This document shows, one piece after another, positions 8,767-16,146 of a DNA stretch of 36,901 nucleotides; within the stretch, counting starts at the first letter, position 1, and every line of letters begins with the position of its first letter. This DNA comes from a virus (lineage: Duplodnaviria > Caudoviricetes). Below the pieces are notes generated by a model, which made no database searches, was not told the DNA's origin, and saw only the letters and a list, made by a program, of their open reading frames with translations. The stretch is taken from IMG/VR virus record IMGVR_UViG_3300032225_001413, positions 1-36,901 of that record. The stretch is one strand, 5' to 3'. The position numbers and the translations under genes are program-made.

Positions 8767-9015
8767 TTACATAACACGCACGGCAGCAGGTGTCGACGGT
8801 CCCCCTTGCCCGCGCGCGCGTCGTTGTCGTCTACGCTTGCCGTTCTTTTCTTCTTCGTCTTCGTTTTCGTCCTCGACGTCATGCACCGTCACCGGCGACG
8901 CGCCATTCAGCAGGCGCACGCTAATGACCTTCGCGACGACGGCGCCGATCTCCATACCGAAGCCGATCGCTACGCACTCAAGAATCGTGACGACGATGTC
9001 GACGAGATCCATCAT
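8767..9015 (-). CDS. Small membrane protein, 82 aa
   Basis: ATGA overlap with the phosphoesterase stop; hydrophobic N-terminus followed by an acidic run and a basic run. Confidence 0.6.
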   Translation of the reverse strand: MMDLVDIVVTILECVAIGFGMEIGAVVAKVISVRLLNGASPVTVHDVEDENEDEEEKNGKRRRQRRARGQGGPSTPAAVRVM

Positions 9016-9794
9016 GCCCTCCCGTCGTAGCACTTGCCGTCGCGCCAAAATCGTTGTTCGGTGTAAATGACGACGTCGGCGGTGAAACGACCAGATTCGC
9101 GCTCGATCCAAAATTCGCCATGCCCTTGCGTCCATCCGGTCGGGCCTTTCAGGTATGGCGCCTCGTCGACGGGGCACAAGCAAGGGATGCCGAAGCCGCC
9201 GCGCACGTGCTGCGAGCCTTCGGGGCCAGCGACGGGGATCGTATGGATTTGCGCGCGGTGGCAATGCCCGACGACGATCGATGTCCCGTAGCGTAGCAGG
9301 TGCTGCTTGGCGTACGCATCGCCTGCGTAGACGCCATGCGTAAAGCCCAGGTGCCCGATCTTATGGACCTTGCCATAGTCCGACGACGTGATCCGATACT
9401 CAGCGAGGCACAGCGCGGATTGCCACGTCTCACGCCCGCGTAGCACTGGCGCCTTTTTGGCGACGTATCGCGCATAACGATGTTCGTGATTTCCCTCGAC
9501 GTAGTGGATCGGCTTGCTGCCCATCCGTCGACGCAGGTCATAGAGCTGCGCGCGCACGGCTTCGACCTCGGCGGCAAATTCTGGCGCCGGTTGCCCGTCT
9601 TCGTGGAGCGACACTGAAAGGAAATCGGCGAAGTCGCCGTTGATGATCAATCGGTCAGGCTGCACGTCGTCGAGGCGAGCGAGAAACGCGCGCCACGCGA
9701 AGGGATGGTGATAGGGCACGTGCACATCAGAGCACACAAGCACGAGATCGACGTCGCTGCGCGAGCGGCCGCGCTTCGTCTTTGCCTTCGCCAC
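9012..9794 (-). CDS. Calcineurin-like metallophosphoesterase, 260 aa
   Basis: All five motifs present: SDVH, GDFAD, GNHE, THG, GHCH. Confidence 0.92.
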   Translation of the reverse strand: MAKAKTKRGRSRSDVDLVLVCSDVHVPYHHPFAWRAFLARLDDVQPDRLIINGDFADFLSVSLHEDGQPAPEFAAEVEAVRAQLYDLRRRMGSKPIHYVEGNHEHRYARYVAKKAPVLRGRETWQSALCLAEYRITSSDYGKVHKIGHLGFTHGVYAGDAYAKQHLLRYGTSIVVGHCHRAQIHTIPVAGPEGSQHVRGGFGIPCLCPVDEAPYLKGPTGWTQGHGEFWIERESGRFTADVVIYTEQRFWRDGKCYDGRA

Positions 9795-9810: not shown

Positions 9811-10356
9811 TTACTGCGCCGTGTGCACGCTGCGCACGCTGCGCACGCGGTAGGTTTTGACCTGCGTCCCCCAGGTCGTCGATCCTTCGAGGTTCACGGC
9901 ATCAAGTTGCGCTTCGCGTCCCGTCGCCGGGTCGGCGTAACGAAGGCGCTTGAAGCCGCTTGCGTCGTAGTGCTCGTCGAGGATCAAGACGAAATGATCG
10001 CCGAAAGCGTCGCCCGTGTGGTCGACGTGCGCGATCACAAGCCCACCGGCGCGCAGCGTCTCGCCAATGGCGCCGCGAAGCTGCGATGGGTCGCCCTTGA
10101 GTGCGTCGCCGACGACAAGCCCAGCCAGCGCGCCGAGTTCTTTCGTCATGGCCATCGAATGCAGAAACGCCTTGCGGTCGATGCCGGCGCTATTCAGCAG
10201 CGGCGGTGGCATCTCGACACCACGCAGCGCGCGCGCGGCCTCGCACAGGCAGACGAGCAGGCATCCGGCGCGCCCGATCGTCGATGGGCCAAAGCCGAGC
10301 GTCGCGGCCGACCATCGAGGATCGGCCTGTCGATACCGTGGGCCACCGGCGGTCAT
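9811..10356 (-). CDS. Peptidase C39-like cysteine peptidase, candidate endolysin, 181 aa
   Basis: YxQxDPRW...TIxxxGC, DHFVLI and YADP (Cys-His-Asp); adjacent to holin-like genes. Confidence 0.75.
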   Translation of the reverse strand: MTAGGPRYRQADPRWSAATLGFGPSTIGRAGCLLVCLCEAARALRGVEMPPPLLNSAGIDRKAFLHSMAMTKELGALAGLVVGDALKGDPSQLRGAIGETLRAGGLVIAHVDHTGDAFGDHFVLILDEHYDASGFKRLRYADPATGREAQLDAVNLEGSTTWGTQVKTYRVRSVRSVHTAQ

Positions 10357-10580
10357 TTGCCGCCCGGCAGCTTCAGCTTTTCGATCGAGTTGGCGACGAC
10401 GTCGGCAGCATCGGCGGCAGCGTCGTTGCTCGGATCCTTGTCGCCGTGCGCGCGTTTGCTATAGGCGCGCAGCATCCCGACGACGACGTCACGCGCGAAG
10501 AGAGCCAGTAGCATCGCGACGATGCTTGCGGCACCGTGCGGAGAAATCAGATCCTTTGCGAAGATGTCAAACACGTTCAC
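10353..10580 (-). CDS. Small membrane protein, putative holin, 75 aa
   Basis: One TM segment (GAASIVAMLLALFA), charged tail, coupled to the peptidase gene. Confidence 0.5.
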   Translation of the reverse strand: MNVFDIFAKDLISPHGAASIVAMLLALFARDVVVGMLRAYSKRAHGDKDPSNDAAADAADVVANSIEKLKLPGGK

Positions 10581-10810
10581 ACCCCAAGTTTGTTCAAAGC
10601 GGCATCCAAACGATCGAACCGGCGATCGAGGTCTTCGCGCAAGCGATCGACGGCGCCGCGCACCGCATCGAGCGATTCCTTGCTTGCCTTGTCGGCCTTG
10701 AGTTCAGCGACGAGTTCTTCCAGTCGGCGCGTGCGGGCTTGCAGCGAAGCCCATGCGGCTGCGCCGCCAGCGATTCCCGAAAAGATGCCAGCGATAATTT
10801 CTTGCGTCAC
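10577..10810 (-). CDS. TM plus coiled-coil lysis-associated protein (XhlA/holin-like), 77 aa
   Basis: GTGA overlap at 10807-10810; IIAGIFSGIAGGAAAW followed by heptad repeats. Confidence 0.55.
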   Translation of the reverse strand: MTQEIIAGIFSGIAGGAAAWASLQARTRRLEELVAELKADKASKESLDAVRGAVDRLREDLDRRFDRLDAALNKLGV

Positions 10811-11334
10811 GGAACGCCCCCATCGACGGCTGAAAGGTCGAACGCCTCGCTTCGTTCTTCTGGCGAGGGAGCGCCGCCCCACTGCACCGGGATACCGGTT
10901 GTGGTGGCGGGAGACAGGATTGCGACACCTTCACCAAGCGAAGAACCGTCACCACCTGCGCCGGTCAATGTATCACGCCACGCGCGCGCCTGATCGCGTG
11001 AAAGCGCGATCGCGATCTTGCAGCGGTTGTCGCCGTCGATTGCGTGGAAGCCGTTGATCGCTCCGGCTTCCTGCATGGCGTAAAGCACGCGCGCGGCTTG
11101 TGCGTTGTCGCCGTCCAAGCCCGACGTTTCACCAGGACGATCGCCGCCACCCTCAAGCAAGACCGCGCATTGATCGCTAGCCGGGGCAGTCACGAGGACA
11201 CAATCACCATCGGACGGTGCGCATTCGACGACGTAACTACCGGCCGGCGAAAGCACTGACGAGAGATAGGCGAAGCCACCGGCGACGGAACCACCAACGG
11301 TGACGAGAAGAGCCGCAAGGCTGTTACGATTCAT
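10807..11334 (-). CDS. Exported or membrane-anchored protein with 4 Cys, 175 aa
   Basis: ATGA overlap at 11331-11334; N-terminus MNRNSLAALLVTVGGSVAGGFAYL. Confidence 0.7.
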   Translation of the reverse strand: MNRNSLAALLVTVGGSVAGGFAYLSSVLSPAGSYVVECAPSDGDCVLVTAPASDQCAVLLEGGGDRPGETSGLDGDNAQAARVLYAMQEAGAINGFHAIDGDNRCKIAIALSRDQARAWRDTLTGAGGDGSSLGEGVAILSPATTTGIPVQWGGAPSPEERSEAFDLSAVDGGVP

Positions 11335-13517
11335 GGTGTCACCGCAGGCGTCACGATCGACGGCCAGATGCGAGCGCGTGAAATCAAGCAAGACGGCTGC
11401 GCCGCTGTCGACCCTGTCGTGCCCAGGTAGATGAACGAAGACGCAACCGTGGGCAACGTGGCGAGCGTATCTGTGCCGATCGATGTACCGTCGTAGAACG
11501 CTTCGATGCTATCGGTCGCCATCGTTTGCCGCAGCTTGTGCGCCACACCATCGGAGACGTCGCCGGATGCCGCAACGATCGACCATTGCGACGTCGTCAC
11601 AGTGCCATCAGCAAGCATGCGATCAGCAGTCGGATCGATGCCAAGGCGAGCGAAGTTGGCTGTACCCGTGCCGATGCTCGCGAACGTTGCCGCTGCCGGT
11701 GTATCGAACGACGGGCAAAGTACCTGCACATCCATCGTCGTCGGGCTGCCGAGATAGTGTGACGCGCCATCGAAGCGCACGTCGTCAGCATTGCGTGTCA
11801 CGGTCGCCGTCGTCGTGGCGAGATAAGACGTCATCGTCGGGAAAGCTTCAACACGCGCGCCCCAAAAGCCGCAATCTGCTGTCGCGTCAGCGTCCGTGTA
11901 GGACGTCACGCCATCGCTTGGCGCGCACAGCAGATCGTGATCGTTCGCCGCCGCCGTGCCGGCGTAGCTGATCGATACGCGGCACAGGTTGACGTCGGCG
12001 ACGCCGTCGCCAGTGGCATCGACGGGCCAACGCTGCGCGCGCGCTTGAAGGATGCCCGCTTGCACCGTCTTGACTGCGGTTGGGCAATCCTCGCCGATCG
12101 TGCAGGCCGCGCATGCCGTGAGGTCGAACCATGCCGTAGCCGTTGCGATCGTGTTGTCACGCAAGGCAACGAACGTTTGCGCGCCAGCCTTTGCCCATAC
12201 GCTGAAGGTGTGCGTCGCTGCCGTGAGCGTGATGCTCTGTCGCAGACCGTGGTCGCCGAGGGCGTTGGCGCCGTCGACGTCGTCGCCCGTCGTCGAAAGC
12301 TCAGGAGTGGCCCATTGGTCCGCAAGCACGTTGTCGCCGACGGTGATTGCCGTCCACGTCGTGCCCAATGTCTGCGACTGCAACGCCAAATTCGTCGACG
12401 CAGGCTCCGACATGAAGCCAGCAATCACGGTTCCGCCAGAGTAGGTATAACGCGCAACGCGAGGTGCGCTGATTCCGGAAAGATACAGGTGACGCGTCAC
12501 ACCATCGACGACGTCGACCATCGCGGTTGTCGCGCGCGTAAGCATCGTGGGCGCCGACGTACCGACCGCAATCGACGGCGACACGCCAAAAGCAACGGCG
12601 GTGCGCGCGCGCGCGATAGGCGGCAGGTCGGTGGCGATTGAAGTGATGCAGTTGGTGCACTTCCAAATGCGCACCGAGATCATGCTTACCGCTGCCGTCG
12701 CGCCGCCGGCAACGGTGCCGATGCCAAATTTACCGGCGGATGTCAGGTTGACCGCCGTAGAGGCTGCGGTTGATGGCGTCGCCGCGTTGACAACGGGCGC
12801 AGCGATCGCCACGCCGGAATCGATCGCGTAGATCGTGTGATTGTAGCGGTCAAAAACATTGTTGATCGCCGTAGCGCTGCTATTGGCAGTGTTCGTGCCG
12901 TCGCTCACGGTGATCTGCCCTCGACAAGCTGTCGACGTGCGCTGTACGGCCCATCCGGCGGTTCCGACACCAGGTGTCGCCGCAGTGCCTATGACGGCGC
13001 CGGTCGTGGCGCATACGCCGGGACGTGTCACAACCTCGATTACGGCGTCCTCGGCGCCAATCTGGCCAACCGACGTCGTGGCCGCTTCGTAGTATTTGCC
13101 GGCGGCTGCAAACGTAACGCCACGCTCGGCGCCATCAAACGCGTGGAACGGCGTTGCAATCGTCGTCGTCGGCGACGATCCGGTGCCCGCTTCGGAGAGA
13201 ACGACGGTGCCGCTTGCGTCGCGACATGTCCAATTCGTGCCACTGATTCCTTGCGCATCGCACGCAAGGACGAGCGTCATTGCCGTTCCGTTGACGGTCA
13301 GCGAATCCGCAAGGTCATTCGGCGTCGTCGCGCCGGCTTGCAGGTCGAACGACATTGCGGGCGACGTCGATGCTGCGGCCAACGTCGTGCCATCACCGAT
13401 GCCGATACCGGCAAGGCCACCATCGTCGCCGAAGGTGAATCCGCCTGAAAAAGTGCCGGCGATTGCAGCGCCGGCACCAAGCACAACCGCGATTGCGGCG
13501 ATTGCGCGCTTGATCAT
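11331..13517 (-). CDS. Head-spike-fibre-like LamG/ConA protein with a signal peptide, 728 aa
   Basis: ATGA-coupled start MIKRAIAAIAVVLGAGAAIA; fibre motifs TRATTA...APR...GFMSEPASTNLALQS and TSYLATT..VTRNADD; LamG-like C-terminus (DGVAHK...FYDG...IYLG...ISRARIW); 14 Cys. Confidence 0.7.
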   Translation of the reverse strand: MIKRAIAAIAVVLGAGAAIAGTFSGGFTFGDDGGLAGIGIGDGTTLAAASTSPAMSFDLQAGATTPNDLADSLTVNGTAMTLVLACDAQGISGTNWTCRDASGTVVLSEAGTGSSPTTTIATPFHAFDGAERGVTFAAAGKYYEAATTSVGQIGAEDAVIEVVTRPGVCATTGAVIGTAATPGVGTAGWAVQRTSTACRGQITVSDGTNTANSSATAINNVFDRYNHTIYAIDSGVAIAAPVVNAATPSTAASTAVNLTSAGKFGIGTVAGGATAAVSMISVRIWKCTNCITSIATDLPPIARARTAVAFGVSPSIAVGTSAPTMLTRATTAMVDVVDGVTRHLYLSGISAPRVARYTYSGGTVIAGFMSEPASTNLALQSQTLGTTWTAITVGDNVLADQWATPELSTTGDDVDGANALGDHGLRQSITLTAATHTFSVWAKAGAQTFVALRDNTIATATAWFDLTACAACTIGEDCPTAVKTVQAGILQARAQRWPVDATGDGVADVNLCRVSISYAGTAAANDHDLLCAPSDGVTSYTDADATADCGFWGARVEAFPTMTSYLATTTATVTRNADDVRFDGASHYLGSPTTMDVQVLCPSFDTPAAATFASIGTGTANFARLGIDPTADRMLADGTVTTSQWSIVAASGDVSDGVAHKLRQTMATDSIEAFYDGTSIGTDTLATLPTVASSFIYLGTTGSTAAQPSCLISRARIWPSIVTPAVTP

Positions 13518-13957
13518 GGCGCCGTCAACGTCGGCACAAGCGCCGCACAAAAGAGCGTCACGGAACCAGCACCAACGCGGCAATAGGCTTGCTTCGCATT
13601 ACCCTCCCACGTCGACTTGAGGCATCCGCTACCGCAAATGCTCGGGCTGTTACGCGTGGCGAACGCTGGATCGGCGATCGTCGAATCGCCAATGGCAACG
13701 CGCGTCGTCGAACCAGTCTCGGCTCCCTCGGGCGGGATGCACTGAACCGCGATCAATGAGTTGCCGAATCCCGACGGGGCCATCGACGTTGCCGACGTAC
13801 CACACGAGACCGTGTAGCTCTTGAGAAACGACGGCCCCACCGCCGTCGCCGCCGAATGTTCGGCATTGGCGACGACGATGGAGGGACCGCCAAAAGCGAG
13901 CAGGCTGCCGCTGACAATGAGCGCGCCCACGATGAAAGCGACAACGCTGCTACGCAT
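13514..13957 (-). CDS. Small beta-rich protein with a signal peptide and 6 Cys (spike-base-like), 147 aa
   Basis: MRSSVVAFIVGALIVSGSLLAF...ANA; immediately precedes the fibre-like gene. Confidence 0.65.
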   Translation of the reverse strand: MRSSVVAFIVGALIVSGSLLAFGGPSIVVANAEHSAATAVGPSFLKSYTVSCGTSATSMAPSGFGNSLIAVQCIPPEGAETGSTTRVAIGDSTIADPAFATRNSPSICGSGCLKSTWEGNAKQAYCRVGAGSVTLFCAALVPTLTAP

Positions 13958-13958
13958 T

Positions 13959-14465
13959 TCAGACCTCGCCGATCTTGACCATGGCAAACGACGCGCTACG
14001 GATCGTCACGGCATTACCGTTCGTCTGGACTGCAAGGCGGATTTCGCACGTATCGCCAACCGCCGACAGGTCGACGATCGCGTAAGCGCAACCGACGGCA
14101 CCACGAGCAGCAGCCGCCGGCTCAGTCTTCAGCGCCTTGGCGCCCTTGGCAGCGGCCGCGACGCCCGCTTCCTTCGCGAAGACCTGCACCGAGTGGAACG
14201 ACGCGTTCACGCCGATCGAATCGCCGATATTGGCGAGCACCAGGTACTTGCCGCAGCCGGCCGGTGTGGCGACGGTGGCGACGCCGGTACCGACGGCGAA
14301 CGTCAAGCCGCCGCCGGTGGTGTTCTTCTTTTCAGTGAAAAGCGCGTTCACGATCGCCTGCGGCGTCGCCGACGCGGCGACAGTGATCGAAAAACCGGTG
14401 CCGTCGTCGACGTCAACGAGCAAAGTGTTGTGAGTTCCGCCGGTGTTGAGTGCTGCGAGGGACAT
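13959..14465 (-). CDS. C1q/TNF-like (BclA-CTD-like) putative capsid decoration protein, 168 aa
   Basis: GKYLVLA...LSAVGDTCEIR...ASFAMVKIG pattern; strong AGGAG RBS; close to the capsid gene. Confidence 0.5.
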   Translation of the reverse strand: MSLAALNTGGTHNTLLVDVDDGTGFSITVAASATPQAIVNALFTEKKNTTGGGLTFAVGTGVATVATPAGCGKYLVLANIGDSIGVNASFHSVQVFAKEAGVAAAAKGAKALKTEPAAAARGAVGCAYAIVDLSAVGDTCEIRLAVQTNGNAVTIRSASFAMVKIGEV

Positions 14466-15156: not shown

Positions 15157-16146
15157 TCAGACCGCCTTGTAGATGATCCTGATACCGTGCTCGTCGGTGT
15201 GTTCGCCGACGGCCCAACACCAACGACCGATCGCCAACAGCGTGTCATCGGCGAGGTCATACTGGAATCCGAGCGACGGCGCGTAACGCTCGACGAGTTC
15301 GCCGAATCCGCGCACGCTGCCCGGCGCGCCAGTCTCGCCACGGCCGGCGACGATGAGCGCGGAGACACGGTCGACGCCGGCATTCGCCGTCGACATCACC
15401 GCTTTGTTCGCGGCGTAGACCGGAATACCGGCGAACGAACCACGGAATCCATTTCGGCTCGCGTCGGGGCGGTGGTTGAAGAACGACAGATCGGCCTGAT
15501 TGCCGGCAAAGATCGTCGACAGCGGCGCGCCCGTACCAGCGACGGCCAGCGCGCGCAGATCGGCGACGCCCTTCTCCTCGAGCACGAAGACCGCGTCTTC
15601 GCTCTCGACGTTGTTCGTCAACAGCTTCGTCAGCGCGTCCAACATCGTCGCGAACGACAGCGACGTATTCGTCGTGCCAGCCGAGCCCGACAAGCCAGGA
15701 AAGAGCTGAAGCGCATCCGTCTCGGCGCGCAGATAATGCGCCTGCATGACTTCCATCATGGCGTCACGAACGAGCGGAAGCGCAGCGGCGCTACCCGACT
15801 GAATCGCGCTGATCACCTGATCACGCGCGACGCCCGGCAGGGCGAGTTCAATCGAGTCTGACGTGAGCTGCACGCCCTGAACCTTCGTCGTCGGCTGAAT
15901 CGAAATGTTCGACTGCACAGAGAAGGTCGCGGGATTCGAAAACGCCAGCGCTTCCGTGTCGTCGACGGCAGCGGCCAGCGCGTTCTTCTTTCGAATCTTG
16001 CGGACCTTCGTCGAGGCGCCCGCGATCGACGCCTGATTCATGAGGGGCAGAATGACGTACTTGCCGCGAAGCGGATCAAGCGCAATCTGCGACATGACCT
16101 CGGTAAGCAGCCAATTTGCGACGGTGGTGGACGACGTAACGGCCAT
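15157..16146 (-). CDS. Major capsid protein (HK97 fold), 329 aa
   Basis: Follows the scaffold, has a GAGG RBS and a downstream terminator; GSFAGIPVY motif; typical size. Confidence 0.85.
   Translation of the reverse strand: MAVTSSTTVANWLLTEVMSQIALDPLRGKYVILPLMNQASIAGASTKVRKIRKKNALAAAVDDTEALAFSNPATFSVQSNISIQPTTKVQGVQLTSDSIELALPGVARDQVISAIQSGSAAALPLVRDAMMEVMQAHYLRAETDALQLFPGLSGSAGTTNTSLSFATMLDALTKLLTNNVESEDAVFVLEEKGVADLRALAVAGTGAPLSTIFAGNQADLSFFNHRPDASRNGFRGSFAGIPVYAANKAVMSTANAGVDRVSALIVAGRGETGAPGSVRGFGELVERYAPSLGFQYDLADDTLLAIGRWCWAVGEHTDEHGIRIIYKAV

Follow-up and report, generated by a model that had tools for sequence, protein, structure and literature searches.

The particles of tailed phages are generally assumed to form entirely within the reducing cytoplasm, and signal peptides on phage genes are therefore usually read as marks of non-virion proteins. 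This report concerns a cassette of three genes, A, B and C, in a tailed-phage genome of 36,901 nucleotides (IMG/VR record IMGVR_UViG_3300032225_001413, positions 1 to 36,901; the whole stretch is called the window below), whose predicted products resemble a head spike and carry leaders of the signal type. The closest described system is the spike of the Rhodobacter capsulatus gene transfer agent (RcGTA), in which the base, a pentamer of Rcc01079, uses its N-terminus to attach to pentons of the capsid and carries a single fibre, Rcc01080, which is held through a short N-terminal peptide (PMC7296036). This pair, the only base plus fibre solved according to the portions of the literature covered here, sits on pentamers (PMC7296036). 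Homologues of Rcc01080 carry varied tail annotations (PMC5026251).

As far as the sections cited describe RcGTA, the locus shares with it a small gene for a jelly-roll protein ahead of a gene for a fibre of family NF048003 (PMC7296036, PMC10218006), a Gly/hydrophobic peptide at the fibre N-terminus (here that of the mature protein), a flexible linker, a lectin-like body and dispensability. Unlike in RcGTA, A and B both carry signal-type leaders and have three and seven predicted disulfides, respectively, two extra LamG-like domains and a third, probably membrane-anchored gene product are present, A is not a detectable member of the base family NF048002, and the tag at the fibre N-terminus differs in sequence and occurs in at least four types.

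Three other systems share single traits with the cassette. Decoration proteins (T5 pb10, phage L Dec, T4 Soc and Hoc) are dispensable components that attach to mature capsids, and they bind finished capsids in vitro (PMC7602432; PMC5292684). In contrast to the cassette, none is described there as exported; the terms signal, periplasm, secret- and disulfide have no occurrence in the main text of PMC7602432. XepA and YomS of Bacillus subtilis prophages are jelly-roll proteins encoded beside lysis genes; XepA is exported, and transient binding to capsid vertices has been proposed, but these proteins have neither a fibre partner nor a tag in the account cited, XepA is absent from mature particles (PMC6834076), and the fold match to A is weak (Z 4.8). 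Finally, T5 Llp, a model for C, is an exported protein encoded right after the receptor-binding gene pb5 (10.1101/2022.06.28.497910). However, as described in that source, only the blocker is exported in T5 while the receptor-binding protein is assembled in the cytoplasm, and C has neither a lipobox nor detected similarity to Llp.

We propose that the products of the cassette are exported, fold with disulfides and then dock on heads at lysis as an RcGTA-like vertex spike, a reading towards which the evidence leans on balance. The observation made in the original prediction was confirmed and its interpretation, in which exported spikes meet capsids during or after lysis, was partly supported. 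B belongs to the fibre-domain family of RcGTA and A is base-like by fold and position; the new element is the export route. The original prediction knew of no description of such a route, and a literature search of mainly open-access papers, supplements excluded, likewise found no account of tailed phages whose head spikes or decoration proteins are exported via Sec. The sections of the RcGTA papers (PMC7296036, PMC10218006) and of the decoration review (PMC7602432) covered by it say nothing of these parts being exported.

Leader sequences and cysteine pairing

The three genes lie on the minus strand. Gene A (13514..13957) encodes a predicted spike base of 147 residues, with a leader (1-21), an arm (22-40), a small jelly roll (44-141) and six Cys. 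Gene B (11331..13517) encodes a predicted spike fibre of 728 residues, with a signal, a tag, a linker, three beta-sandwich domains and 14 Cys, while gene C (10807..11334) encodes 175 residues with a conserved hydrophobic N-terminal segment and four invariant Cys. The open reading frames, their N-termini and the Cys counts were found as claimed when re-read from the sequence. The coupling by ATGA overlaps exists at the A/B and B/C junctions, but A itself begins one base past the upstream stop. C overlaps the next gene by GTGA.

Signals were called with a hand-made rule requiring a charged n-region and a hydrophobic core, with small residues in positions -3 and -1. Of 23 late-region proteins of the window, just A, B and C satisfied this strict rule, as did 2 of 191 controls taken from related loci. 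Among homologues it was passed by 52 of 68 for A, 78 of 93 of the closer and 0 of 13 of the most distant for B, and 58 of 70 for C. A looser hydrophobicity rule was dropped as non-specific because it gave many false positives in controls (e.g., 7/9 and 7/11 for two other genes), hence only the strict rule discriminates.

The layout of n-, h- and c-regions typical of Sec and signal peptidase I substrates is kept across homologues, most clearly for B. The predicted signal of B (residues 1-20; 13458..13517, minus strand) belongs to leaders that diverge widely in sequence and still have textbook ends, among them ARA|Q, AFA|Q and ALA|G. In A, the predicted signal (residues 1-21; 13895..13957, minus strand) forms a separate helix (3-21) in the model and has two candidate cleavage sites. 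The leader is signal-like as predicted, but the site first proposed, ANA|E at 31|32, is less conserved than 21|22, where Ala occupies -1 in the window and in all 12 type-1 loci among those listed. Signal-like starts had been claimed for all three proteins, which holds family-wide; the start of C is conserved and Gly-rich, without a clear variable signal, making a cleavable signal doubtful there.

Co-occurrence of alignment columns pairs the Cys residues of A as 52-126, 73-137 and 108-112 (77 sequences) and those of B as 86-98, 169-198, 287-290, 469-512, 472-478, 531-549 and 601-710 (98 sequences), in line with the predicted oxidative folding. Between 0 and 6 sequences are discordant per co-varying pair; the sequences are related, so that p-values overstate the significance, and pairs 52-126 (A) and 469-512 (B) rest on two and three joint losses, respectively. 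The mature Cys count is even in 54 of 57 A proteins (11 of 68 matches being omitted as spurious, truncated or fused), in 84 of 87 B proteins (19 of 106 being omitted as signal-less by the loose rule, distant or truncated) and in 70 of 70 C proteins. Full-length signal-less relatives of B have 3-7 Cys versus 12-15 in signal-bearing ones. The expected co-occurrence of signals and Cys in homologues was thus observed: both appear together and vanish together. From their sequences, A and B are very probably exported via Sec, cleaved and oxidatively folded.

The predicted fibre

B matches NF048003 with 69.2 bits (curated cut-off 36) over residues 370-577, which bears out its assignment as a relative of head-spike fibres. 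This GTA_spike_fiber domain (11787..12410, minus strand) contains the calcium-loop-like DATGDGVAD noticed originally, a DxTGDGxxD-type motif kept in 85 of 93 homologues. In the predicted structure (predicted local distance difference test score, pLDDT, 87; predicted template-modelling score, pTM, 0.87), residues 1-49 are disordered and three beta-sandwich domains follow. The model matches laminin-G, galectin and sialidase lectin domains, in agreement with the LamG-like motifs first read from the sequence, while no catalytic family was matched by B.

The Gly/hydrophobic peptide predicted at the mature N-terminus is indeed present after the predicted cleavage site and ahead of the flexible linker. 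It is a Gly/aromatic tag (residues 21-40; 13398..13457, minus strand), disordered in the lone model and proposed to be the docking peptide. Within one tag type, column conservation is 0.80 in the tag, 0.75 in the signal and 0.51 in the linker, and at least four types of tag follow the cleavage site of B proteins. Ten longer relatives of B (P0153-P0156, P0160, P0161, P0163, P0165, P0166 and P0168; 780-1165 aa, 14-24 Cys) have an extra Ig-like-looking segment with its own Cys pair between the tag and the first lectin domain.

The predicted base and its companion

The model of A (pLDDT 85) begins with an N-terminal helix that stands apart, continues with an arm of low confidence and ends in a jelly roll of six strands (each of at least 3 residues). 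The nearest predicted folds are mostly jelly rolls of 84-100 aa from tailed phages (17 matches at E<=0.001). In the ESM Atlas, three mostly viral clusters score 0.89 and a PRD1_P5_spike_N cluster (32% of members) 0.83, which serve as leads only. The profile of A had no match among sequences of solved structures. Where the relative of B lacks a signal, its upstream neighbour is a small gene that also lacks one and encodes few Cys; of 12 such upstream proteins scanned, 3 (L132, L149 and L093; L144 is 98% identical to L132) pass the spike_base model of Rcc01079. A therefore sits in the slot of a spike base. The original reading of A as an RcGTA-like base stands for the small jelly-roll fold and for the gene directly upstream of the fibre, but not for membership in the Rcc01079 family; NF048002 is also unmatched by eight further signal-bearing relatives or neighbours scanned. 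A complex prediction with four copies of A (36-147) and the B tag (21-54) reached a score of 0.03, the mark being 0.32; its controls were not folded. One protein of 559 aa (P0016) begins with an A domain followed by a longer fibre-like region, either a real fusion or a read-through.

The N-terminus of C is hydrophobic, Gly-rich and conserved letter by letter among homologues, so that it reads better as an uncleaved anchor; C is likely a membrane-anchored companion of B. No match to C was found in scans of domain and family libraries or in the ESM Atlas, and none of its 70 homologues has a lipobox of the Llp/Cor type, the first Cys of C being residue 38. No relationship emerged between C and eight third genes tested from other cassettes (best E 0.035); those of six other-cassette loci form a family of their own.

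Co-variation of tag and base

The type of the tag matches the type of the upstream gene in 20 of 20 distinct loci in which both are seen (the window and 19 loci). The partner is an A with four Cys in 13 loci, the six-Cys A of the window in 2, a 117-aa A in 3 and a 161-aa protein other than A in 2. Six of the 13 loci with a four-Cys A carry a different fibre body, without a BLAST match to B, and tag types are scattered as if at random on a tree of 75 B bodies (36 changes; shuffles average 38.1 and the lowest number possible is 4). The tag behind the predicted cleavage site follows the type of A and not the fibre body. A of the window is itself chimeric: its arm resembles the type of its own capsid clade (9-16 of 24 positions identical versus 5 of 24), and its jelly roll the type that accompanies its tag (40-44 of 69 versus 14-20 of 69). 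The chimeric A and the matching of tags would fit a two-ended adaptor, which is suggestive only, as close linkage predicts the same.

Signal switching and cassette exchange

Relatives of the B fibre domain gathered from viral and metagenome contigs gave 82 distinct loci with an upstream neighbour. Both genes carry a signal in 17 loci and neither does in 60; the neighbour alone does in 5 and the fibre alone in none, so that the signals switch in concert. Two of the five neighbour-only loci (L052 and L057) have hydrophobic fibre leaders missed by the rule. The median Cys content is 1.65% in signal-bearing versus 0.75% in signal-less loci. A midpoint-rooted tree of the fibre domain was built without L083, whose coverage was short, and with the 5′-truncated P0172 assumed to bear a signal. 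Most of the signal-bearing sequences cluster in it as a single group (support 0.87) placed among sequences without a signal; L086 lies elsewhere. This gives a weak hint that export may have been added to cytoplasmic spikes at least twice. L083 (3599-5180) and L086 (4878-8149) are distant phages in which signal-bearing fibre-domain genes have signal-bearing upstream partners unrelated to A, the fibre leader of L086 being lipobox-like; they are probably independent gains of export.

The slot after the capsid gene was followed in 34 loci found via that gene, several of which are near-duplicates. The signal cassette is its sole occupant in 8 loci and a signal-less cassette in 13 (5 partly seen), while 3 loci have both; the slot is empty in 3, contains a deletion remnant in 1 and lies out of view in 6. 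The remnant (L025:9839-10160) is a natural deletion, in which a truncated start of A and the last codons of C remain. In the signal-less cassette, found in the same slot at L003:6438-8883, L013:1871-4476 and L018:12198-15129 among other loci, the first gene encodes a 133-aa protein of PHROG 3758, a head-and-packaging virion structural protein, followed by a 374-480-aa protein (weak Kelch matches in L018) and a fibre with Gly/Thr/Val repeats. This cassette is likely the cytoplasm-built counterpart. A-B-C is thus an optional late cassette, which alternates with a signal-less virion cassette.

In every backbone seen, the signal cassette lies directly ahead of presumed lysis genes (small hydrophobic). 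A gene for a patatin-like phospholipase separates the cassette from the small hydrophobic genes in L006 (14641-15513; PF01734, E 1.5e-13) and also in L005, L049 and L057; its product is possibly a lysis helper that would free envelope-held parts.

A proposed assembly route and its alternatives

The leaders on A, B and C, family-wide in sequence, would lead to Sec export from the cytoplasm. Cleavage of A and B would then be followed by oxidation to three disulfides in A, seven in B and two in C, a strongly suggested step. By profile and fold, B is a relative of head-spike fibres with flanking LamG-like lectin domains and A is a small jelly roll in the base slot. Cleavage may free the tag of B to bind an oligomer of A, and the arm of A to bind a capsid vertex. 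As a guess, and the weakest step of the scheme, C might stay in the inner membrane and hold or chaperone the fibre until the membrane is breached. Lysis would unite the exported parts with the cytoplasm-built head, allowing the vertex spike to assemble, and the finished spike may provide a first, reversible binding of a host surface glycan. Docking at such a late stage is made feasible by the example of decoration proteins, which attach to mature capsids and can also be added to them in vitro.

A number of observations weigh against this proposal. The presumed capsid gene is assigned by position only, having no family match in PHROGs or in a sequence search of the PDB. A has no match to the spike-base model NF048002, and a shallow profile of four true Rcc01079-type bases aligned with it at an hhalign probability of 0.2%. 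Its best match among solved structures is the PM2 spike P1, with a middling Z of 7.7 (root-mean-square deviation, rmsd, 2.9; 90 residues aligned), and the best 50 structure matches are generic jelly rolls and cupins, the RcGTA base not being among them. Some distant A homologues have a lipobox-like Cys or long hydrophobic leaders. The model of B also matches two phage baseplate chains (8env_K and 9b45_1, E 1e-6), and B also matches PHROG 5939, labelled tail. Most tag types lack the regular Leu-Gly repeat of RcGTA. The cassette, predicted to lie in the capsid region, does so in the clade of the window, but in unrelated phages it is not confined to that region and follows a portal gene (L053) or the tail module (L052 and L057). 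Fifteen of the 17 loci with both signals belong to one clade, therefore the independent events are few. Linkage alone can yield both co-variations, of tag with A type and of A arm with capsid clade, because the tag lies about 100 bases from the 3′ end of A and the A arm adjoins the head genes; the two co-variations are confounded by it. Docking at lysis is inferred from the genes.

The most serious competitor, though a less probable one, is an envelope module that never joins the virion, close to the secreted lectins offered as an alternative in the original prediction: an exported lectin complex anchored by C, or a released decoy, would mask the receptor of the phage, with superinfection exclusion or protection of progeny from cell debris as the effect, as for T5 Llp. 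Export and disulfides fit this explanation equally well, C, which looks membrane-anchored, is encoded behind the fibre just as Llp is behind pb5 (10.1101/2022.06.28.497910), and the lipobox-like leaders of some A homologues agree with it. So does the dispensability of the cassette, which in the 34 loci is absent in 3, a remnant in 1 and accompanied by the signal-less virion cassette in 3. However, the order of base then fibre and the fold of a virion spike are retained, the A arm follows the capsid clade, and Llp is one small lipoprotein rather than a spike homologue. Moreover, coupling to late genes would make exclusion late, and no integrase was found among the 67 open reading frames of the window scanned.

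Parts exported by the same route might instead dock on the tail or neck and not on the head vertices, which we regard as quite unlikely. The position after the tail module in L052 and L057, where the upstream partner is not detectably a homologue of A, points that way, as do the tail and baseplate matches of B and the varied tail annotations of Rcc01080 homologues (PMC5026251). In the clade of the window, however, the cassette lies after capsid genes, in alternation with a cassette of the head-and-packaging class, and the solved pair of RcGTA sits on pentamers (PMC7296036).

Still less probable is a lysis accessory resembling XepA and YomS. Such a jelly-roll oligomer would be exported, act on the envelope and be missing from mature particles. 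The place of the cassette directly before presumed lysis genes would suit it, as would the export of XepA, its absence from mature particles in the account cited (PMC6834076) and its presence among the fold matches of A (Z 4.8, rmsd 3.5, 82 aligned). That Z is, however, at background level, B is a lectin-like fibre without a match to a catalytic family, and the same lysis genes are kept in phages that lack the cassette.

That the proteins stay in the cytoplasm, their hydrophobic starts being structural docking segments and their Cys binding metal or oxidising after lysis, is highly improbable: the RcGTA fibre does dock through a hydrophobic N-terminal peptide (PMC7296036), B has CxxC-like spacings (287/290, 469/472) and the signal calls depend on a hand-made rule, but the n/h/c layout and AxA-type ends are kept across unrelated leader sequences, signals and Cys pairs are gained and lost together, long-range pairs such as 601-710 (B) and 52-126 (A) are unlike metal sites, and the leaders lie outside the folded domains in the predicted models of A and B.

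Genome setting and neighbouring genes

The window is a complete tailed-phage genome, with a 123-base direct repeat common to both ends and a GC content of 63%. Its genes include those for a terminase, a portal-like protein, neck and tape-measure proteins, a helicase, a primase, an exonuclease and a methylase. A scan for promoters and terminators gave chance-level results. The presumed major capsid protein (15157..16146, minus strand; 329 aa) was assigned from its position after the terminase, portal-like and scaffold-like genes, its size and its conservation. Upstream of A lies a signal-less gene of 168 aa (13959-14465), itself preceded by a conserved gap of about 150 bases; it is conserved in the clade, missing in some loci and without a family match, and is a candidate for a head decoration protein.

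Directly after C follows the presumed lysis block (9811..10810, minus strand), with two small hydrophobic, apparently holin-like genes and a peptidase-C39-like gene (9811-10356). The product of the latter has an invariant Cys and His, PF13529 is matched by 3 of 10 homologues, and it is probably an endolysin of an unusual type. A metallophosphoesterase gene (9012-9794) within the late operon is conserved at 83-88% identity across much of the clade.

No host link emerged from the searches: no relative of the capsid gene was found in genome contigs, which gave a single distant match to a B domain, and A was unmatched in 201 genomes of the phylum of that contig, a search run without a positive control. 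No informative cultured relatives were found.

Implications for tailed-phage assembly

More broadly, we consider it fairly probable that the family represents a second assembly line of tailed phages, in which modular, disulfide-stapled spikes would be built in the envelope, signal peptidase would unmask matched tags between fibre and base and between base and capsid, a membrane anchor would hold the kit, and lysis would be the last assembly step. Secretion would have been grafted more than once onto cytoplasmic head spikes, with fibre bodies swapped behind a fixed tag. The likely pay-off would be large lectin fibres that are stabilised by disulfides and free to be exchanged behind that tag.

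The locus adds a deep family, a complete Cys pairing, four matched types of tag and base, a chimeric base and natural deletions. The family offers direct tests through its natural deletion, its cassette-less and two-cassette relatives, its four tag types and its chimeric base. Even the rival explanation, an exported spike homologue that masks receptors, is undescribed in the literature searched. If the spikes do join the particle at lysis, the annotation of virion proteins, the prediction of host range and the view of lysis as mere release would need revision, and the pair of tag and base would be a natural route to display disulfide-rich proteins on phage heads.

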